DNA of 64,000 nucleotides from SAR86 cluster bacterium SAR86B (GTDB taxonomy: Bacteria; Pseudomonadota; Gammaproteobacteria; Magnimaribacterales; D2472). This document shows, piece by piece, positions 34,158 through 55,956 of this stretch (its first letter is position 1; every line of letters starts with the position of its first letter). The stretch spans positions 69 through 64,068 of the forward strand of contig CAJJAC010000008.1 of the NCBI GenBank assembly GCA_905181955.1. Reading direction: 5' to 3'. The position numbers and the translations under genes are program-made. Below the pieces are notes generated by a model. It searched no databases. It was given only the letters and a program-made list of their open reading frames with translations, and was not told the DNA's origin.

Positions 34158-35312
34158 ATGACTAATGTTAGAAGTTTAATTTTTTCAATTAAAAAACAAT
34201 TTACAGTTATATTATTTGCGCTTTCCAATAAAGCTTCGGCTGAGTGGGATGACTTAAATATGACGCAGGGAGCAACTGCAATAAGTAGAGAGGTCTATGA
34301 CCTGCATATGCTTATTTTTTGGATTTGTGTTGTTATAGGCGTCTTAGTATTTGGAGTCATGTTTTACTCAATGTATGCATATACCAAAAAGAAGAATCCT
34401 GTTGCAGCTACATTTCATGAGAATACAAAGGTTGAGCTAGCATGGACAATTATTCCTTTTTTAATTCTTATTGCTATGGCTGTTCCAGCATCCAAAACTC
34501 TTCAATCTATTTATAACGATGAAGCTGGCGATATTAATATTCAAGTAATTGGTCATCAATGGAAGTGGCAGTACAGATATCTCGAAGATGATGTTAACTT
34601 TTTTGCAAACCTATCAACTGATCTCGATGAAATATATAACAAAGTTCCTAAGGGTGAAAACTATCTTCAAGAAGTTGATGAAATAGTAGTAATCCCAGTT
34701 GGCAAAAAAGTTAGATTTCTTATAACAGCAAATGATGTTATCCATTCATGGTGGGTGCCTGCATTTGCCATAAAACAAGATGCTATCCCTGGTTTTATAA
34801 ATACTGCTTGGACTATTGTTGATGAGCCCGGACTATTCAGAGGAAAATGCACAGAGCTGTGCGGAAAAAATCATGGCTTTATGCCCATTGTAGTTAAGGC
34901 TGTTGAGCAAGATGAGTACGATCTTTGGATAAAAGAAAAACAAGCAGGAGCAATAGCTTTGGCTGAATTAACAGAAAAAGACTGGACAGCTGCAGAGCTT
35001 GTAGAAAGAGGTGAATCTCTATATATAAAGAACTGTGTAGCATGTCATGGACCTAATGGTGCAGGTGTAACAGGAATTTTTCCTGCTCTGGCAGGAAGTG
35101 ACATAGTTTTAAATAATAAAACTCGCCAAATAGAAATTTTGATGGAAGGAGTTCAAGGAGCCGCAATGCAATCTTATGCAGAACAACTTGCTGAAGTTGA
35201 TATGGCAGCCGTTATTACTTACACAAGAAGGTCTTGGGGTAATGCTGAGAAAGGGGATGGAGAAATTGTTGTTCCCAAAGATATAGTTGAATATAAGAAA
35301 GCAAAAATTTAG
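34158..35312 (+). CDS. coxB: Cytochrome c oxidase subunit II with C-terminal cytochrome c domain
   Basis: GHQWKWQY, DVIHSW, CuA ligands CTELCGKNHGFM, heme motif CVACH. Confidence 0.97.
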   Translation: MTNVRSLIFSIKKQFTVILFALSNKASAEWDDLNMTQGATAISREVYDLHMLIFWICVVIGVLVFGVMFYSMYAYTKKKNPVAATFHENTKVELAWTIIPFLILIAMAVPASKTLQSIYNDEAGDINIQVIGHQWKWQYRYLEDDVNFFANLSTDLDEIYNKVPKGENYLQEVDEIVVIPVGKKVRFLITANDVIHSWWVPAFAIKQDAIPGFINTAWTIVDEPGLFRGKCTELCGKNHGFMPIVVKAVEQDEYDLWIKEKQAGAIALAELTEKDWTAAELVERGESLYIKNCVACHGPNGAGVTGIFPALAGSDIVLNNKTRQIEILMEGVQGAAMQSYAEQLAEVDMAAVITYTRRSWGNAEKGDGEIVVPKDIVEYKKAKI

Positions 35313-35330: not shown

Positions 35331-36914
35331 ATGAGCGCTGTAATAGAAAATCACCATGACGATCATCATCATGGTCCTGCAAAAGGTTTAAAAAGATGGT
35401 TTTATACAACTAACCATAAAGATATAGGAACACTATATCTGTGGTTTAGTTTTGCTATGTTCCTCATTGGTGGAGCTATGGCAATGATTATCAGAGCCGA
35501 GCTTTTCCAGCCAGGCATGCAAATTGTTGAGCCAGAATTCTATAATCAAATGATCACCTTGCACGGGTTAATTATGATTTTCGGTGGAGTTATGCCAGCC
35601 TTTGTTGGTCTTGCTAACTGGCTAGTTCCTATGATGATAGGTGCACCAGATATGGCATTGCCTAGAATGAATAATTTAAGTTTTTGGATATTACCTTTTG
35701 CATTCTTTATTCTTCTATCTTCATTATTTATGGAGGGTGGAGCTCCTAATTTTGGTTGGACGTTTTATGCGCCTCTTTCAACTACTTATGCCCCTCCAAG
35801 CACAACCTTTTTTATATTCTCTGTTCATATAATGGGTGCATCATCAATAATGGGCTCAATTAATGTCATAGTAACAATCATGAACATGAGAGCTCCAGGA
35901 ATGGGGCTTATGAAAATGCCTCTTTTCGTATGGTCCTGGTTGATTACTGCATACCTACTAATTGCAGTTATGCCAGTTCTTGCAGGCGCAGTAACTATGA
36001 TGTTAATGGATATCCATTTTGGAACTAGTTTCTTTAATGCAGCAGGTGGCGGAGACCCAGTTCTATTCCAGCATATATTTTGGTTCTTCGGACATCCAGA
36101 AGTCTATATTATGATTCTTCCAGCTTTTGGAATTGTTTCTCATATTATTGAGACCTTCTCTAGAAAACAGTTATTTGGATACTCATCTATGGTTTGGGCG
36201 ATGCTATCAATTGCTATCCTTTCTTTTGTAGTATGGGCGCATCATATGTTTACAGTTGGCATGCCTCTTGCGGCAGAATTATTTTTCATGTGGTCAACAA
36301 TGCTTATCGCCGTTCCAACTGGAGTAAAAGTATTTAATTGGATAGCAACTATGTTTAGGGGCTCAATAACATTTGAAACACCTATGTTATTTGCATGTGC
36401 ATTTGTTGTGTTATTCACCCTTGGTGGCTTTTCTGGGTTAATGCTTGCCATTACTCCAGCTGATTTTCAGTATCACGATACATACTTTGTTGTAGCTCAT
36501 TTTCATTACGTATTAGTTCCTGGAGCTATCTTCTCAATAATGGCAGCAGTCTATTACTGGATACCTAAATGGACTGGCAACATGTATGACGAAAGACTTG
36601 GAAAACTTCATTTCTGGCTTTCATTTGTTGGTGTAAATGTAACATTCTTCCCACAGCATTTTATCGGCTTGGCTGGCATGCCAAGACGTGTTCCAGATTA
36701 CGCGTTGCAATTTGCAGACTGGAATATGGTTTCAACAGCCGGAGCATTCTTATTTGGTTTTTCACAAGTATTCTTCTTATTTATTGTTATTAAGACAGTA
36801 GTGGGTGGAAAGAAAGCAACTGCTCAGGTATGGGAAGGTGCTAGAGGTTTAGAATGGACAGTTGATTCACCTGCTCCTTATCATACATTTACCACACCAC
36901 CTAAAGTAAGCTAA
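35331..36914 (+). CDS. coxA: Cytochrome c oxidase subunit I (A1 type)
   Basis: NHKDIG, WFFGHPEVY, WAHHM, AHFHY. Confidence 0.99.
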   Translation: MSAVIENHHDDHHHGPAKGLKRWFYTTNHKDIGTLYLWFSFAMFLIGGAMAMIIRAELFQPGMQIVEPEFYNQMITLHGLIMIFGGVMPAFVGLANWLVPMMIGAPDMALPRMNNLSFWILPFAFFILLSSLFMEGGAPNFGWTFYAPLSTTYAPPSTTFFIFSVHIMGASSIMGSINVIVTIMNMRAPGMGLMKMPLFVWSWLITAYLLIAVMPVLAGAVTMMLMDIHFGTSFFNAAGGGDPVLFQHIFWFFGHPEVYIMILPAFGIVSHIIETFSRKQLFGYSSMVWAMLSIAILSFVVWAHHMFTVGMPLAAELFFMWSTMLIAVPTGVKVFNWIATMFRGSITFETPMLFACAFVVLFTLGGFSGLMLAITPADFQYHDTYFVVAHFHYVLVPGAIFSIMAAVYYWIPKWTGNMYDERLGKLHFWLSFVGVNVTFFPQHFIGLAGMPRRVPDYALQFADWNMVSTAGAFLFGFSQVFFLFIVIKTVVGGKKATAQVWEGARGLEWTVDSPAPYHTFTTPPKVS

Positions 36915-36916
36915 TT

Positions 36917-37477
36917 ATGGGTAATAAGAGAAAGACTATATTAAAACTTTCAGCCGCAGTGGCGGGAATGTACTTATTCTCTTTTTTACTTGTGCCTTTA
37001 TATGATGTTTTTTGTGATATTACAGGCCTAAATGGCAAAGTTGCTCAATCAACGAATGCAGAGTCATCAATATCTGTTGAAGGAAGAGAGATAAGTCTTC
37101 AATTTATCTCACATAATAATGCAGGAATGCCTTGGGTATTTAAGCCATCAAAAAAAGTTTCAAAAATAAAAACGGGGACACTTTATGAGGCTACATTTTA
37201 TGCAAAGAATACTACTGATAAAATGATGACTGGTAGAGCTGTTAATAGCGTTGCTCCGTCAAATGCAAAAGATTATATTAAAAAAATAGAGTGTTTTTGT
37301 TTTGCTGAAGGCATAGAGCTTATGCCAGGTGAAGAGATACTCCTTCCAATCAAAATGGTTGTTGATAATGAGCTGCCTAAAAATATTAAGAATATAGTTC
37401 TTTCTTATACTATCTTCGATAGTAATATAGAACACAGTATTACAATGGATCACGATAGTGATCTCGCGGGGTCTTAA
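36917..37477 (+). CDS. ctaG: Cytochrome c oxidase assembly copper chaperone (Cox11)
   Basis: VPLYDVFCDITG, KIECFCF. Confidence 0.95.
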   Translation: MGNKRKTILKLSAAVAGMYLFSFLLVPLYDVFCDITGLNGKVAQSTNAESSISVEGREISLQFISHNNAGMPWVFKPSKKVSKIKTGTLYEATFYAKNTTDKMMTGRAVNSVAPSNAKDYIKKIECFCFAEGIELMPGEEILLPIKMVVDNELPKNIKNIVLSYTIFDSNIEHSITMDHDSDLAGS

Positions 37478-37480
37478 GAT

Positions 37481-38398
37481 ATGAGTGGTGGAAATTATTA
37501 CGTACCAGATTCAAGCAGATATCCAATTTTTGCTGCTGTCTCTTTATTTCTTCTTGTTATGGGAGCAGGTGGAACAATAAATGGAGTAGCTAACGGCTCT
37601 ACAGTTTTATATATAGGCTTTGCAACTATGGCTGTGACAATGTTTTTCTGGTTTAGAACAGTTGTTCAGGAACATCTAGCAGGTCTTGATAGTGCTCAGT
37701 TAAAAAAATCTTATGTATTTGGTATGGCATGGTTCATTTTTTCTGAGGTTATGTTCTTTGGAGCATTTTTTGGCGCTTTATTTTATGTAAGAAATTTTGC
37801 AGTGCCATGGCTAGCAGGTGAGGGAGAGAAAGGCGCACCAATTGCATTTGTTCAAGAGATGGGCGTAGACTTTTGGACTGGATTCCAAAATACGTGGCCA
37901 GTTATAGCTACTCCAGATGCTGGAGATGCATACGAGATGGCTGATAAAAGTATGGCTTTTCCTGGTTGGTCGCATGTTGCTGAGTGGTTACCTCTTTGGA
38001 ATACAATCATTCTTCTAAGCTCAAGTGTTACCGTACATTTTGCTCATCTAGGTTTAAAAAATGGAAGCAGAAAAGCTTTTAATAGATGGCTTGGTGCAAC
38101 AGTCGGCTTAGCTGTAATATTTTTAGGACTCCAAGCTGCAGAATACTATGAAGCATATGCACATTACGGACTAACCCTTAATTCTGGAATATACGGATCT
38201 ACATTCTTTATGTTAACTGGGTTTCATGGCTTCCATGTTTTTCTTGGTTGTTGCATGCTTTCAGTGATGCTTGTTAGATCAGTATTCTTTAATCATTTTG
38301 AAACACATGACCATTTTGGTTTTGAAGCAGCATCATGGTACTGGCACTTTGTAGATGTTGTTTGGGTAATGTTATTTTTCTTTGTATATATAATCTAA
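37481..38398 (+). CDS. coxC: Cytochrome c oxidase subunit III
   Basis: FIFSEVMFF, TGFHGFHV, WYWHFVDVVW. Confidence 0.98.
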   Translation: MSGGNYYVPDSSRYPIFAAVSLFLLVMGAGGTINGVANGSTVLYIGFATMAVTMFFWFRTVVQEHLAGLDSAQLKKSYVFGMAWFIFSEVMFFGAFFGALFYVRNFAVPWLAGEGEKGAPIAFVQEMGVDFWTGFQNTWPVIATPDAGDAYEMADKSMAFPGWSHVAEWLPLWNTIILLSSSVTVHFAHLGLKNGSRKAFNRWLGATVGLAVIFLGLQAAEYYEAYAHYGLTLNSGIYGSTFFMLTGFHGFHVFLGCCMLSVMLVRSVFFNHFETHDHFGFEAASWYWHFVDVVWVMLFFFVYII

Positions 38399-50545: not shown

Positions 50546-51616
50546 TTGATATTCCTTTTGTATTCTTTAACTGCTAACTCAAACCAAGACCTATCCCCAT
50601 CATTAAATACTAAGCTATTAGAAATATATTCTAATTTGTTGCTAGATCTGGAGGCTTGTATAAATGACGAAGGTCTCGAAGACAAAGATAGACTTAAAAC
50701 TGCATGTAATGCGGACAATCTTCATCCATTTCAAAATATCTTATTCCAAACTCAGTATAAGCATATATCTTTTTATTTAGATGGATTTGAATATCCTGAG
50801 CCGGCAATAACGGTTAAACAACACAATTATCCAACATCAATGCACGCTAAAAGCCGAAATGGGGTTGTTGTAATAGTTTTTTCAATAGATAAAGAAGGCA
50901 AGACATTCAACCATAAAGTCTTTAGCTCAACTTTTACTTATACAAAAAGAGAGCGTGGAAGTGAATGTCAAGATGAGTTTTGCCAAGAGGCTCTGAGAGC
51001 TGCATTAGCACTACGATATAAGCCGGCAACATACCTCGGAAGTCCAATTGTTTTAGATGGAATTAAAGTTATATATAGATTTGTTTTAGATGAAAATAAA
51101 GTATTTACTTCAAGAGGGGGAGCTGTTGAATTAAATAAGGTCAATAAGCTTATAGATAAAGGCAAGTTACAGAAAGCTAAAGAGAAGAGCTTAGAAAAAA
51201 TAGACGATTATCATTATATGAATCTTCAGCTAGCTAAGATATTTTTTCTAGAAAAAGATTATCTACAAGCTCAAAAGTATGCATATGATTTCTTATATGA
51301 CAACTGGAGTTTTATTGAGGGAGGGCAGAATAAGTTTCGGCTTCTTGGGCTTTCAATACTTACCGAGAGTTGCTTCAAACAGAATAAATATAAAGAAATT
51401 ATAGACAACTATGAATTAATTCAAGATTTTAATTTACAGAAGGAATATAAAAATGATCTTGCTCAGGTAAATATGTTTCTTGGGCTTTCTTATTTATTTG
51501 AGGGAGATCTAATCAAAGGCATAGAGCACTTATTGATAGCTAAAAGAAGTACTGAAAATATTAAAGTTATTGAGATAATAGATTTATATCTAAGTGAGGC
51601 TGATAAAGCTATTTAG
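50546..51616 (+). CDS. TonB C-terminal domain protein with TPR-like C-terminus
   Basis: YP..M......G.VVIVFSIDKEG...V..S...F..EAL.A....RYKPA...G.P (TonB_C pattern) followed by helical repeats; start uncertain. Confidence 0.7.
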   Translation: MIFLLYSLTANSNQDLSPSLNTKLLEIYSNLLLDLEACINDEGLEDKDRLKTACNADNLHPFQNILFQTQYKHISFYLDGFEYPEPAITVKQHNYPTSMHAKSRNGVVVIVFSIDKEGKTFNHKVFSSTFTYTKRERGSECQDEFCQEALRAALALRYKPATYLGSPIVLDGIKVIYRFVLDENKVFTSRGGAVELNKVNKLIDKGKLQKAKEKSLEKIDDYHYMNLQLAKIFFLEKDYLQAQKYAYDFLYDNWSFIEGGQNKFRLLGLSILTESCFKQNKYKEIIDNYELIQDFNLQKEYKNDLAQVNMFLGLSYLFEGDLIKGIEHLLIAKRSTENIKVIEIIDLYLSEADKAI

Positions 51617-52188
51617 TAGGAAAGAAGTAGCTTACTTAGCTTTATAAAACCAACAATATCCTTAGAAGACACTGCATAAGTATCCATACCACCCAAGTCC
51701 CTTGATGCCTTAGCTACCGCTTGAGCTACTTTATTTTTTGATAATTTATCGCTCTTAGTTAGTACAGGTATGCAGTCAACGTCTGATTCTCTGCACAGAT
51801 TTATTAGCTCAAGATCGCTATCTTTTAAAGGATGACGAATATCCATAAAGATCAGAACCGCTTTAAATGATTGTCTTTCCTTGAAGTATTGTCCTAATAA
51901 AGGCCCCCAGTCTTTTCTTCTAGAATATCCTGATTTTGCGTAGCCATAACCAGGCAAATCAACCAGCTTCAAATCCTCATTAACTCTGAAGTAATTAACC
52001 TCAGTAGTTCTTCCAGGAGTCTTACTTATACGAGCTAATTTTCTATTCTCAGTTAAAGCATTCAGCGCACTAGATTTCCCAGCATTAGATCTACCAGCTA
52101 AAAGTATTTCAACACCAGTATCCTCAGGTAGTTTTTTATACTGAGTAGCGCCCATCATGAATTCAGTATTTTTAAAAAGGTTTTGCAT
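51613..52188 (-). CDS. engB: Ribosome biogenesis GTPase YihA/YsxC
   Basis: GRSNAGKSS, SKTPGRT, DLPGYGYA, TKSD. Confidence 0.97.
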   Translation of the reverse strand: MQNLFKNTEFMMGATQYKKLPEDTGVEILLAGRSNAGKSSALNALTENRKLARISKTPGRTTEVNYFRVNEDLKLVDLPGYGYAKSGYSRRKDWGPLLGQYFKERQSFKAVLIFMDIRHPLKDSDLELINLCRESDVDCIPVLTKSDKLSKNKVAQAVAKASRDLGGMDTYAVSSKDIVGFIKLSKLLLSY

Positions 52189-52249
52189 TTAATCGTTTAT
52201 CTAAGTCTCAGCTATGTTTATAATACCCACTCTAAGGAATCTCAAACAA

Positions 52250-52900
52250 ATGTCTATAAGAATATTATTTGCGACGGTATTTATTTTTAGTATAAGTACC
52301 ATTGCAGCTGAAAAAAAGATGCCCAATGTCTTCGAAGACGGTGATGCATCTAAAGGCGCCAGCATGGTTGCAGCTTGTGCTGCATGTCATGGATCTGATG
52401 GTAATAGTATTAGCTCTGCTTGGCCTTCACTGGCTGGACAGAATCAAAAATATTTATTGGATCAATTAAACTATTTTAAGAACGGTGAGCGTGAAAATGT
52501 TCTTATGGGTTCGGTTGTACCGCTTTTAAGAGCCTACTCAGATCAAGATTTACTTAATATTGCAGCCTATTATTCATCGCAAACAAAGACTAATGGTCAA
52601 GCAGAAGATGATGAAGAGCTTTTAGCTCTTGGAGAAGCTTTATACCGAAGCGGCAATATGAAAAAAGCTATCCCAGCTTGCACAGCATGTCATTCAGTTA
52701 ATGGTGCTGGTAATGCGTTAGCAGGATTTCCTTCCGTTGCCGGGCAACAAAAAGCTTACCTAGTCTCAACATTAAAAGCATATAGGACTATGGAAAGAAA
52801 TGCTGGTGACTATGCCTTGGTAATGCAGGCAATTTCTAATAATTTAAGTGACGATGAAATCGACGCTTTAGCAAACTATATGCACGGACTATATGAATAA
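52250..52900 (+). CDS. Diheme cytochrome c4
   Basis: Signal peptide, CAACH and CTACH, P.LAGQ; divergent from engB; start likely ATG 52250. Confidence 0.93.
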   Translation: MSIRILFATVFIFSISTIAAEKKMPNVFEDGDASKGASMVAACAACHGSDGNSISSAWPSLAGQNQKYLLDQLNYFKNGERENVLMGSVVPLLRAYSDQDLLNIAAYYSSQTKTNGQAEDDEELLALGEALYRSGNMKKAIPACTACHSVNGAGNALAGFPSVAGQQKAYLVSTLKAYRTMERNAGDYALVMQAISNNLSDDEIDALANYMHGLYE

Positions 52901-53525
52901 AAATTATAAAAACTTATTGTTATGTATCTTTGGATTTACGTTAATAGCTTTTAATGTCAATCTTCAAGCTGAGTACAAACTAGGCAAAGACTTCAAATTA
53001 ATAGATAACCCACTTCCTGTAAGACAGGATGGAATAGTTGAGGTAACCGAAGCCTTTTGGTATGGATGTAATCATTGTTACTCCTTTGAATCTACCATTA
53101 ATAACTGGGAAGCAGGCAAGCCGGACTATGTGAAGTTCTCAAAAATGCCTATTACTTGGAGTCAAATCCATCAATTACATGCTTCTTTATACTATACGAT
53201 AGAAGCGCTTAAGCTTGATAAGGGAGCGCATACAGCAGTCTTTACAACTGTTCATAAAGAAAATAACTTTCTTGCTAGCCAGAAATCAGTTGTAAAATTT
53301 TTATCTAAACTGGGTGTCAGTGAAGATAAGGCAAAACAATATTTGAACTCCTTTGCAGTAAAGCAGAAAGTTAGTAGAGGCATTCAAGTTTCAAAACAAT
53401 TAAGAATCACAAGCGTTCCAATGATCATTGTAGATGGAAAGTATATTATTGAATCCAAGCCAAGTAGACAAGAAATGCTAGAAGTTTTGGATTACGTTAT
53501 CGAACTTCAAAAAAGTAACTCGTAA
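52893..53525 (+). CDS. dsbA: Thiol:disulfide interchange protein DsbA
   Basis: Signal peptide, FWYGCNHCY, cis-Pro loop SVP..IVDGKY; follows cc4. Confidence 0.92.
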   Translation: MNKNYKNLLLCIFGFTLIAFNVNLQAEYKLGKDFKLIDNPLPVRQDGIVEVTEAFWYGCNHCYSFESTINNWEAGKPDYVKFSKMPITWSQIHQLHASLYYTIEALKLDKGAHTAVFTTVHKENNFLASQKSVVKFLSKLGVSEDKAKQYLNSFAVKQKVSRGIQVSKQLRITSVPMIIVDGKYIIESKPSRQEMLEVLDYVIELQKSNS

Positions 53526-53537
53526 ACGGAGACATCA

Positions 53538-54137
53538 ATGACTTTAGGTACTAAAAAAAATATTTACTTAGTAATTTTACCTATCTGTTTTTTATTTTTA
53601 TTTAATGGAAAAAAATACGATGACTCTGTCATAGCAAGAATTGCTGTGCCCGTTAAAATTTGTTTAGAGGGTCAGCCTTGTGGGAAACCAGCTCCAGCTA
53701 GCTCTATGGCATCTGCAAGCAATGTAGAAGTTAAGAAGATAGAACTATCTGAAGGTTCTGAGCATGTTGTAAAGATGTTAAATATGGGTGATGGCGGCGC
53801 AATGATATTTGAACCTGCAGTCATCAAAGTATCTAAAGGCGATACAATTCACTTTAAAGCAACTAATATTTCTCACAATTCAGAAACTCTTCCCGGCATG
53901 ATTCCAGCAGGAGCAGAAGGATGGATGGGAGCACTAAATCAAGATATCTCAGTTACGATTGATAGTGAGGGTGTTTATGTCTATCAATGCAATCCTCATG
54001 CAATGTTAGCAATGGTAGGAGTTATTCAAGTTGGAGAGGCAGTGAACCTAGATGATGTTAAGGCAGCAGCCCAAAGTATGAAATCAACTTTTGTAAGTAA
54101 TTCTGACAGATTAGATGGCTATCTAGCCCAGCTCTAA
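53538..54137 (+). CDS. Pseudoazurin-type blue copper protein with a cytochrome c5-like N-terminal leader
   Basis: HVVKMLN...M.FEP.....GD, SHN, YQCNPHAMLAM (type-1 Cu ligands H, C, H, M). N-terminal hydrophobic helix then DDSVIARIAVPVKICLEGQPCG; no CxxCH. Confidence 0.9.
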   Translation: MTLGTKKNIYLVILPICFLFLFNGKKYDDSVIARIAVPVKICLEGQPCGKPAPASSMASASNVEVKKIELSEGSEHVVKMLNMGDGGAMIFEPAVIKVSKGDTIHFKATNISHNSETLPGMIPAGAEGWMGALNQDISVTIDSEGVYVYQCNPHAMLAMVGVIQVGEAVNLDDVKAAAQSMKSTFVSNSDRLDGYLAQL

Positions 54138-54361
54138 TTCCCTTCTAACTTATTTAATCTTTCTTCAAGCTTCTCAGCGCGAGTTTTTAGTGAGTTATAT
54201 TTAGACTCAGATACAAACCCAGCAGAGCTAAGAACTTTTTCAATTCCTGGTTTTAGTTTTTCTAGAGCATTAATTTCAGGAGCTGCCAGCTTCGACTCTA
54301 TCCCCTTAAGCTCTTTGCCAACTATTGAAATTATTGCATCTAAGACTTTATCTTCTTTCAT
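54134..54361 (-). CDS. Probable UbiK/YqiC-family coiled-coil protein
   Basis: 75 aa with FVS..Y..L..R..KLEERL.KLE C-terminal coiled coil; neighbourhood is consistent. Confidence 0.55.
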   Translation of the reverse strand: MKEDKVLDAIISIVGKELKGIESKLAAPEINALEKLKPGIEKVLSSAGFVSESKYNSLKTRAEKLEERLNKLEGN

Positions 54362-55057
54362 TTAAGCTATCTCATCTATTATTTTATAATTATACCAATC
54401 TAAAATTTCTGCTGGCTTCGATACTTCTTGTTCCCAATTAACCTTTTCTTTATTAAACCATATAGCTTTCATGCCAATATTTAATGCACCAATGACATCA
54501 TTAACTTGATGGTCACCTATATGAATAACTTCATTAGAATTAAAACCGCTTAAATCTAAGGCTTTCTGAAAATGTTCTTTATCTGGTTTATTGCTTTGAA
54601 CATCCAAAGAGCTCACTGAAAATTTAAAATACTCACCAATATTTAATCTATAAATATCCGCATTCCCATTTGTTAAAACCCCTAATTCATATCGAGTAGA
54701 TAGATCTTTCAGCGCATCAATTACCCCATCATAAAAAATAACCTCATGTCTTTTATCTAAAAAATAATTAAAGGAATCTTCCACCAGCTCATTTAGTTCA
54801 GCTTCATCAGAGGCAATAGGAGCAAGCTTAAATCTAAATATTTCCCTTCTTAATTTTCCCAAATCCCAATATAAGGATGGGTCTTCTTTAGCGAGGTCTT
54901 TGCGTAATGCTAGAAAGGATTCCATGTCACCCCAATCAATAGCACCCACCTTTTCTTCTAACCATTTTCTTGTTGTTAATTCAGCATTAATGATTACAGG
55001 GCCTATGTCCCAAAATGTATCATCAAGATCAAATGTTATTAGTTTAATGTTACTCAT
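54362..55057 (-). CDS. HAD-IA hydrolase (YigB-like)
   Basis: FDLDDT, TNGN, KPD, HIGD...D; follows xerC. Confidence 0.9.
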
Positions 55058-55956
55058 TGTTTTCTTGCCTTAGGATGTGCCTCATCATAGATTTTTACCA
55101 GGTGTTGGTAGTCTAATTTTGTATATATTTGTGTAGTTGATAAAGAGCTGTGGCCCAGAAGCTCCTGAATAGTTCTCAGATCTCCACCAGATTCAAGTAT
55201 ATGTGTAGCAAAGCTATGCCTCAGCATATGCGGGTAAACAGGAGGTAAACCTTGCTTTAATGCCAATCTCTTCAATCTTAATTGAATACTTCTTGTAGTG
55301 ATCCTTCCGCCTTTTAAATTAATAAAAACAGCATCTGATTCAACTTCAATTTTCTCCCTCTCGAGCAGCCACTTAGCAATTGCTTCTTGAGCAAACCTAC
55401 CAACCGGAACTAATCTGGTTTTAGAACCTTTTCCAAAGACTCTTAAAAATTGCATATCTTCTTCAAAATCTTTTATATCAACACCAGCTGTCTCAGAAAC
55501 TCTAAGACCAGATGAATACATAAGCTCAACAATAGCCAGATCACGAATTTCTAGATTATTTGAAGGCTTAAAATTCATTAGCATTTCCACTTCTTCAGGA
55601 GATAGAACATTTGGAAGATGCTTGGCAGCCTTTGGTCCAGAAATTAAATCAAATGGTGATAGTTCTATGAGTTTATTTTTAAGTAAGAACTTAAAAAAGC
55701 CTTTAGCTGAAGACAGATGTCTTTGAATGCTTTTTGGATTATTGTTTGATGCAAAGAGATTACCTATCCAGCTTGTACATACCGATTCAGTCGCAGCAGA
55801 ATAAGACTTTATATTGAGGCTCTTTAAATAGATTAATAATTTTTTAAGGTCTCTTTCGTAAGATGAAACTGTATTTAAAGAGAGATTCCTTACTGAGCCT
55901 ATATAAAGCAAGTATGCTTCAAGATCTTTTTCTATAAAGTAACTAGATTTACCCAT
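55054..55956 (-). CDS. xerC: Tyrosine recombinase XerC
   Basis: [35 protein letters not shown]; dapF-DUF484-xerC-yigB synteny. Confidence 0.95.

Follow-up and report, generated by a model that had tools for sequence, protein, structure and literature searches.

The window analyzed here, a stretch of 64,000 nucleotides (nt) from SAR86 cluster bacterium SAR86B (contig CAJJAC010000008.1), harbors at 53538..54137 a gene whose product carries the N-terminal leader of a cytochrome c5 in front of a complete pseudoazurin domain, and this chimera lies in the slot behind the genes of cytochrome c4 and DsbA that a c5 gene occupies in another member of the order (Magnimaribacterales). The protein is probably a chimeric respiratory carrier, in which the c5 N-terminal module bears a type-1 copper pseudoazurin head instead of the c5 heme head and docks on the bc1 complex and c4. 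From the homology to a solved case, the genome content and a complex prediction, we infer docking on c4 and on cytochrome c1 and an electron shuttle to a caa3-type oxidase.

Direct reading of the translation gives DDSVIARIAVPVKICLEGQPCG for residues 28-49 (nt 53619-53684) and KKYDDSVIARIAVPVKICLEGQPCG for residues 25-49, followed by the linker KPAPASSMASASNVEVKK, which in this gene ends in KKIELSEGSEH. Residues F22-Y27, V31, R34, P38, C42, E44, G45 and C48 are invariant in 13 aligned members of the family, and the linker is variable. To judge from the sequence, C42 and C48 likely form a disulfide in the leader loop, and dsbA lies directly upstream of the gene. No canonical small-x-small cleavage site was seen by direct reading in the own-family N-terminus, and sites of the type ...LSA/SE are present in families f2 and f3 of the order. 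Database proteins matching the leader-pseudoazurin at E<=1e-3 number 2186; the best 120 of these 2186 all measure 186-208 amino acids (aa), bear the source name “pseudoazurin” and match Pfam PF00127, and the 13 aligned ones have the same architecture.

The head belongs to the pseudoazurin family, with 129.1 bits against NCBIfam TIGR02375 (cut-off 109.85) over residues 80-199 and an E value of 8.4e-16 for PF00127. Its best PDB match is the pseudoazurin 1BQK (E 7e-28; residues 77-196 against chain residues 4-119), in which H113, C151, H154 and M159 fall on positions 40, 78, 81 and 86 with no gaps across the metal site. The alignment runs as far as chain residue 119 (of 124) for 1BQK and 121 (of 123) for 1ADW, and so covers the C-terminal helical extension, for which a low-confidence monomer model (mean predicted local distance difference test, pLDDT, 38) has helices at 171-180 and 189-198. 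The four residues, which we take to be the type-1 copper ligands His, Cys, His and Met, are invariant in 13 of 13 aligned family sequences, the first lying in S112-H113-N114 and the others in C151-x2-H154-x4-M159. No CxxCH heme-binding motif is present in the 199 residues, no cytochrome c family of Pfam matches the protein even at E<=0.1, and the c5 head with its MPxxGxCxxC disulfide region is absent from it. An earlier reading, made from the letters of the window without database searches (the sequence-only reading), had described the hydrophobic helix, the segment at 53619-53684, the linker, the SHN and C-x2-H-x4-M motifs, the lack of CxxCH, the 12-bp gap and the GGAG before the gene, all of which are there as described.

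A second, ordinary pseudoazurin of 162 aa with a signal peptide only is encoded elsewhere in the genome (G000:C9:173773-174153; locus L084 3271-3759, minus strand). It is 60% identical in the domain, its neighbors on contig 9 (an exonuclease-like gene, an esterase-like lipoprotein and transporters) are not telling, and paralogs of this type are present in many relatives.

The relationship of the leader to the c5 tail emerges from several searches. A profile of 28 positions (A5), built from ten leaders from three families of the order, all of them pseudoazurin-headed, was run against the PDB (177,635 sequences), where its sole significant match was the Pseudomonas aeruginosa cytochrome c5 (8smr_L, residues 22-42, E 1.1e-4). 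By our own count from the alignment, the mature 8SMR chain L starts at T19 and its tail reads TTTDDAIAKRLEPVGK, which aligns with residues 25-40 of the window protein. A narrow profile of own-family leaders (A2) was also run over 401 genomes of the class, and outside the order it matched best to five frames, 144-185 aa long and with E 0.004-0.1 per genome. Each of them is a mono-heme c5-type cytochrome, and the match directly follows the signal peptide and precedes an Ala-rich linker; one of these (L041, 141 aa) matches 8SMR chain L, “Cytochrome C5”, with E 3.8e-57. An independent c5 sample was chosen by the c5 head alone, which is found in 176 of 251 class genomes, the own genome excepted. 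Its 30 best loci hold 36 head instances, 19 in frames longer than 350 aa and 17 in stand-alone frames; the tail motif ..[DEQKA]R[ILMV]xP[VIML]G occurs under a strict pattern in 10 of the 17 stand-alone proteins, with an Asn variant recognized by eye in five more, and a transmembrane anchor and an Ala/Pro linker are further features of several of them. When the A2 hidden Markov model was scored against the open reading frames (ORFs) of these 30 loci, a Pseudomonas-like c5 gave E 0.0014 and the rest scored weakly, the profile being too narrow. The leader was found in none of 26 cupredoxin ORFs from other orders (one cut at the N-terminus, two from G340 and G239, which are flagged unpublished), taken from a sample of 301 class genomes, 30 of which have a match to the pseudoazurin head. 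The sequence-only reading had proposed that the leader is homologous to c5 N-termini and is not common among pseudoazurins; the A5 match, the class scan and a c5 in the same slot (below) bear out the former, and the cupredoxin sample agrees with the latter for pseudoazurins outside the order. Cupredoxins of other Gammaproteobacteria (loci L157, L158, L163, L169 and L173) carry a lipobox-like N-terminus with a long Ala/Pro/Glu-rich linker, which is a different tether.

The gene slot tells the same story at the level of the locus. The order in the window is polA, engB, c4, dsbA, pseudoazurin gene, haloacid dehalogenase (HAD)-type hydrolase, xerC and dapF, and a genome of the same order (G004) has polA-engB-c4-dsbA-c5-HAD-xerC-dapF, with a c5 of 147 aa that carries the leader DPYEDEVRKRLGLEGLICKQDESCG. 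Leaders go with lineage: fifteen further loci include pairs from the same genus with near-identical leaders under unlike heads, namely c5 against pseudoazurin in genera g6 (G038 against G050), g8 (G042 against G102), g16 (G013 against G009) and g15 (G095 against G007). A third kind of head is present in G078, G026, G090, G006 and G197. There the slot protein, which the longest ORF call puts at 132-154 aa, combines the same FNGKKYD leader with another heme head, closest to cytochrome c554/c552/c553 (2ZZS, E 3.3e-13). The check proposed from the sequence alone, namely which domain follows the leader at this locus in relatives, thus returned c5, c553-type or pseudoazurin heads. In addition, G050, G030, G007, G015 and G001 show a tandem state: no more than ~100 nt after the leader-pseudoazurin gene comes a short c5 (103-117 aa), which is tail-less and bears a signal peptide of its own. 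Cytochrome c4 is always the upstream neighbor in the loci where that flank was displayed.

The distribution of heads was examined in 200 genomes of the order, with pseudoazurin counts taken from 150 of 208 matches and, among these 150, from the ones beginning at query residue 28 or earlier. The leader-pseudoazurin is present in at least 98 of the 200 genomes and the c5 head in 101; at least 24 genomes have both and at least 74 the leader-pseudoazurin only, and among the matches listed 77 have c5 only and 25 have neither. All five genomes checked from the last group carry the c553-type form. The leader of c5 was confirmed by translation in seven c5-only genomes, and in the others it was deduced from frame lengths of 135-165 aa. 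In four genera the pseudoazurin and c5 sets are disjoint among the matches listed (7 and 7 of 14 genomes in g8, 14 and 8 of 25 in g16, 2 and 4 of 6 in g20, 2 and 1 of 3 in g21), and in the own genus the copper form is found in five of five genomes and the c5 head in none of them. In a tree of the pseudoazurin heads, a single clade in line with taxonomy (support 94/84) unites the leader-type heads of families f1 and f2; the tree does not resolve its base or where the f3 forms and a long g12 branch belong, and so does not settle the number of fusion events.

The use of the leader extends beyond these heads. With a broad leader profile (25 rows), a search of 1.84 billion representatives yielded 125 proteins at E<=1e-3, which by our own count of Pfam matches comprise 49 cytochromes c, 3 Copper-bind proteins, 5 with odd or weak families and 68 without any, the latter mostly fragments. 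By motif they divide into 26 c5 heads, 27 other or truncated heme c, 9 pseudoazurins and 63 unclassifiable ones, and the heme c group includes c553-type and c551-type heads as well as two-domain forms. The variety of heads on the tail is wider than c5, as one protein (P0240) has the same leader with a c551-type head, and two-domain cytochromes of 276-301 aa carry it too (the group of P0240, P0176, P0223 and P0231).

What the tail does is known from the P. aeruginosa bc1-c4-c5 complex, for which Di Trani et al. 2023 (PMC10556555) describe, by cryo-electron microscopy, a 16-residue N-terminal c5 tail that contacts both c4 and c1, the other 102 residues being linker and mobile heme head. The same paper holds the proposal that the head moves between the second heme of c4 and CcoP of the cbb3 oxidase (PMC10556555). 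The sequence-only reading had supposed that a c5 docking module was kept while the heme domain was replaced by a copper domain: the docking role of the c5 tail is published rather than hypothetical (PMC10556555), and the copper head in place of heme stands by slot and leader, whereas exclusive replacement does not, since at least 24 relatives keep a tail-less c5. For the protein of the window, a complex was predicted from mature c1, mature c4 and residues 22-75, each with its alignment. The interaction prediction score from aligned errors (ipSAE) was 0.79, 0.78 and 0.79, whereas the controls gave 0.00 and 0.01 when the partner was replaced and 0.51 when c1 was; the ipSAE mark is reached by 58 of 80 solved complexes and by 2 of 110 mismatched pairs. 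At least 87% of the contacts recur between runs, with a partner pLDDT of 61-66, and the predicted interface sets tail residues 28-53 (among them 28, 31-32, 34-37 and 39-46) against c1 54-96 and c4 66-68, 126-132 and 222-228.

According to the reading that we prefer, the N-terminal module would comprise an export or anchor segment, a docking tail of ~16 residues, the C-x5-C loop and a flexible linker. The tail would clamp the protein between c1 and c4 as in the P. aeruginosa complex, and the linker would let the copper head swing between heme 2 of c4 and the terminal oxidase, here a caa3-type enzyme whose subunit II has its own cytochrome c. One heme carrier would thereby be replaced by a copper carrier.

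The rest of the respiratory chain was searched for in the own genome (1.29 Mb, 13 contigs, 88.8% complete). The bc1 complex is present (petABC on contig 7, G000:C7), so that the c4-dsbA-X operon and bc1, the gene content of a bc1-c4-c5-type shuttle, are both found. The genome has a single COX1, of the caa3 type, which lies in the A-type oxidase operon of the window beside a coxB with a fused cytochrome c, and no cbb3 was found in it, nor any monoheme cytochrome c beyond c4 and coxB; a weak PF00034 match lies at G000:C4:18667-18840 (E 0.2). The usual partners of pseudoazurin are NirK, NosZ, the cd1 nitrite reductase and a peroxidase. No nirK, nirS, nosZ (two models) or di-heme peroxidase was found in this 88.8% complete genome, and no c5 head either in searches with the c5 heads of L041 and G004. 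The suspicion that an intact c5 or a denitrification partner might exist elsewhere is thus not substantiated, as none was found in the own genome and the c5 head is missing from all five genomes of the genus. Across the order ccoN is present in 1 of 201 genomes, and therefore the acceptor there cannot be cbb3, whatever head is on the tail; the sole match (G145:C3:3451-4845) comes from a 70% complete genome and is either a real exception or possible contamination. In families f3 and f4 (G003, G004, G007, G008, G011 and G012), cytochrome c1 matches in two pieces, at about 10-180 and 215-276 of the query, and the frames of 220-248 aa apparently do not have a ~35-residue internal segment of family f1; this missing segment could bear on carrier docking.

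Many studies of seawater metagenomes, and six metatranscriptome runs, contain the stretch. In four of the seawater metatranscriptome runs c4-dsbA-pseudoazurin is covered by contigs of 95-100% identity, two of which bridge the dsbA/pseudoazurin junction. Contigs from three runs have their first base at 52240 or 52241, shortly before the probable c4 start at 52250. This points to a transcript that begins a little ahead of Met13 of the c4 ORF, and to a c4 start at 52250 rather than at 52214. The c4 ORFs in relatives from other genera begin near the equivalent of 52250, and those of the same genus keep the longer call.

Several observations weigh against a chimeric carrier that docks on bc1-c4. 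The own 50-aa leader and the A2 profile retrieve no c5 from the PDB at E<=10 but chance matches only (best E 1.6 and 0.24), so that the search with the leader alone, from which the sequence-only reading expected c5 N-termini, did not return them; the link between leader and c5 depends on the broader profile or on intermediates. Likewise, pairwise BLASTP of the G004 c5 against the leader-pseudoazurin gives E 6e-4 over 41 residues only. An hhalign comparison of A2 with a profile of c5 leaders (A4; 97.9% probability, E 6e-13) was set aside as circular, the A4 leaders having been picked by the A2 search. The complex prediction is possibly a memory of the solved 8SMR, one of its controls reached 0.51 and our own alignments lie outside the calibration of the tool, and the AlphaFold2 monomer (13-row alignment, mean pLDDT 38) is poor and unusable. 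The cbb3 acceptor of P. aeruginosa is missing here, and caa3 is the acceptor by elimination only; absences in an 88.8% complete genome are provisional. At least 24 relatives have a tail-less c5 beside the copper form, which makes the swap not always a replacement, and the ordinary second pseudoazurin in the genome indicates that copper carriers are used without a tail too. Finally, contigs from RNA libraries can contain DNA and show presence, not transcription level or strand.

Iron sparing would be a reasonable motive for the exchange, its only support being the analogy with plastocyanin and cytochrome c6 together with the marine, small-genome setting; the tandem genomes indicate that both carriers can coexist. 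It is also quite possible, with a chance a little short of even, that the exchange of heads is real and is not a matter of iron economy, being tuned instead to copper supply, redox potential, oxygen or the cost of cytochrome c maturation, or reflecting neutral turnover by deletion and recombination. This would fit the tailed pseudoazurin with a tail-less c5 in tandem in at least 24 of 200 relatives, the heme-containing c553-type head as a third occupant of the slot, and a cell that still makes c1, the di-heme c4 and the coxB cytochrome c, so that one heme per carrier is saved; nothing in our analysis argues against it.

We consider it unlikely that the leader is an inherited export or anchor signal only and the pseudoazurin an unspecialized carrier, in the periplasm or held at the membrane, that serves another donor or acceptor without docking on bc1-c4. 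The weak direct similarity of the own leader to the Pseudomonas tail, the lipobox and long linker that tether cupredoxins in other Gammaproteobacteria and the tail-less pseudoazurin of the same genome are in line with such a role, but V31, R34, P38, C42, E44, G45 and C48 are invariant in 13 members above a variable linker, the leader persists under three unlike heads, c4 is always upstream where the flank was displayed, the complex prediction passed its controls, and no classic pseudoazurin partner was found in the genome. The idea that faulty assembly or gene calling, or a frameshift between two genes, produced the fusion can be dismissed: many leader-bearing library representatives are truncated or frameshifted metagenome calls, but an intact frame of 194-220 aa recurs in at least 98 of 200 genomes, several of them single-contig, and 2186 database proteins match, which already refutes it; independent seawater DNA and RNA runs contain the leader-pseudoazurin, and the junction ending in LSEGSEH is conserved.

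The coordinates of the chimeric gene, its parts and the genes considered with it are given in Table 1. Two further ORFs lie within the conserved neighborhood. One of 356 aa with tetratricopeptide repeat-like repeats (50546-51616, plus strand) stands between polA and engB, which are adjacent in G004; the other, of 75 aa and coiled-coil-like (54134-54361, minus strand), separates the HAD hydrolase from the pseudoazurin gene, whose stop codon it overlaps, and has sub-threshold Pfam matches only, and relatives have a gap of similar size at the same place.

Table 1. Features of the leader-pseudoazurin locus and of the oxidase genes in the window
Feature	Position	Strand	Remarks
Leader-pseudoazurin chimera gene	53538..54137	+	199 aa plus stop
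Hydrophobic segment, residues 8-23	53559..53606	+	signal-anchor or signal peptide; direct reading
Tail, residues 25-40 (KKYDDSVIARIAVPVK)	53610..53657	+	counterpart of the 16-residue P. aeruginosa c5 N-terminal tail contacting c4 and c1
C-x5-C loop, residues 41-49 (ICLEGQPCG)	53658..53684	+	C42 and C48 invariant
Variable Ala/Ser/Pro linker, residues 50-74	53685..53759	+	conserved end junction KK-x-ELSEGSEH
Pseudoazurin head, residues 75-199	53760..54134	+	H113, C151, H154, M159 and C-terminal helices
dsbA-pseudoazurin spacer, 12 nt (acggagacatca)	53526..53537	+	GGAG at 53528-53531
engB GTPase	51613..52188	-	synteny anchor
Di-heme cytochrome c4	52214..52900	+	predicted docking partner; likely true start M13 at 52250
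dsbA	52893..53525	+	stop 53523-53525
HAD-type hydrolase	54362..55057	-	downstream synteny anchor
xerC	55054-55956		after HAD hydrolase
coxB with C-terminal cytochrome c domain	34158..35312	+	putative electron acceptor
coxA, ctaG, coxC	35331..38398	+	coxA is the only heme-copper oxidase subunit I found in the genome

The closest known system is the c5 of the P. aeruginosa bc1-c4-c5-cbb3 supercomplex (8SMR/8SNH chain L), which shares with the protein of the window the D-x-x-[IV]-x-x-R-[IL]-x-P-V-G-type tail, the C-x5-C loop and the Ala-rich linker, and is likewise a small mobile redox head on a tail, encoded beside c4 (PMC10556555). It differs in its CxxCH heme head, where the SAR86 protein has a copper pseudoazurin, and in that the N-terminal hydrophobic segment of the SAR86 protein family is without an obvious cleavage site and the organism lacks cbb3, its only oxidase being of the caa3 type. 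With the pseudoazurins of Achromobacter cycloclastes (1BQK) and Paracoccus (1ADW; TIGR02375) the protein of the window shares the full-length domain, the ligand positions and the C-terminal helical extension. Ordinary pseudoazurins differ in being soluble and in having a signal peptide only. Plastocyanin and cytochrome c6 are interchanged in cyanobacteria and algae, where a copper protein and a c-type cytochrome are alternative carriers for one step, as here, where some relatives encode both side by side; in the present case, by contrast, the exchange takes place inside one gene, on a shared docking tail, and in respiration rather than photosynthesis. Membrane-tethered cupredoxins are represented by the lipid-modified azurin Laz, auracyanin, sulfocyanin and halocyanin, with a lipid or transmembrane anchor. 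In them, too, an N-terminal anchor and a flexible linker tie a small blue-copper domain to the membrane, whereas the peptide tail here is homologous to the tail that binds c4 and c1. In the literature we found, among the papers listed, nothing that links pseudoazurin to a c5 tail or SAR86 to pseudoazurin, papers on membrane-anchored pseudoazurins having been judged by title or the start of the abstract.

Only in 2023 was c5 shown to be tethered within a bc1-c4-c5 complex, in a pathogen with a cbb3 oxidase (PMC10556555). The SAR86 locus adds three things to that case: a copper head and other heme heads appear on the same docking tail, the tail occurs in organisms with an A-type oxidase only, and the head varies between close relatives at one locus. 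It is possible, although we rather doubt it, that the c5 tail is a plug-and-play docking handle on which the order, made up of abundant marine bacteria with small genomes, repeatedly swaps c5 heme, c553-type heme and copper heads, so that sister species would differ in the metal of the tethered subunit between bc1-c4 and caa3; the copper allele would then be a heterotroph's counterpart of plastocyanin for c6, and how common it is in the ocean would follow the supply of iron. The database name “pseudoazurin” suggests denitrification where none is encoded. The locus would offer a natural experiment in the matching of a mobile carrier with its partners, and a case in which copper-for-iron substitution in respiration can be tested for ocean heterotrophs that are very abundant.

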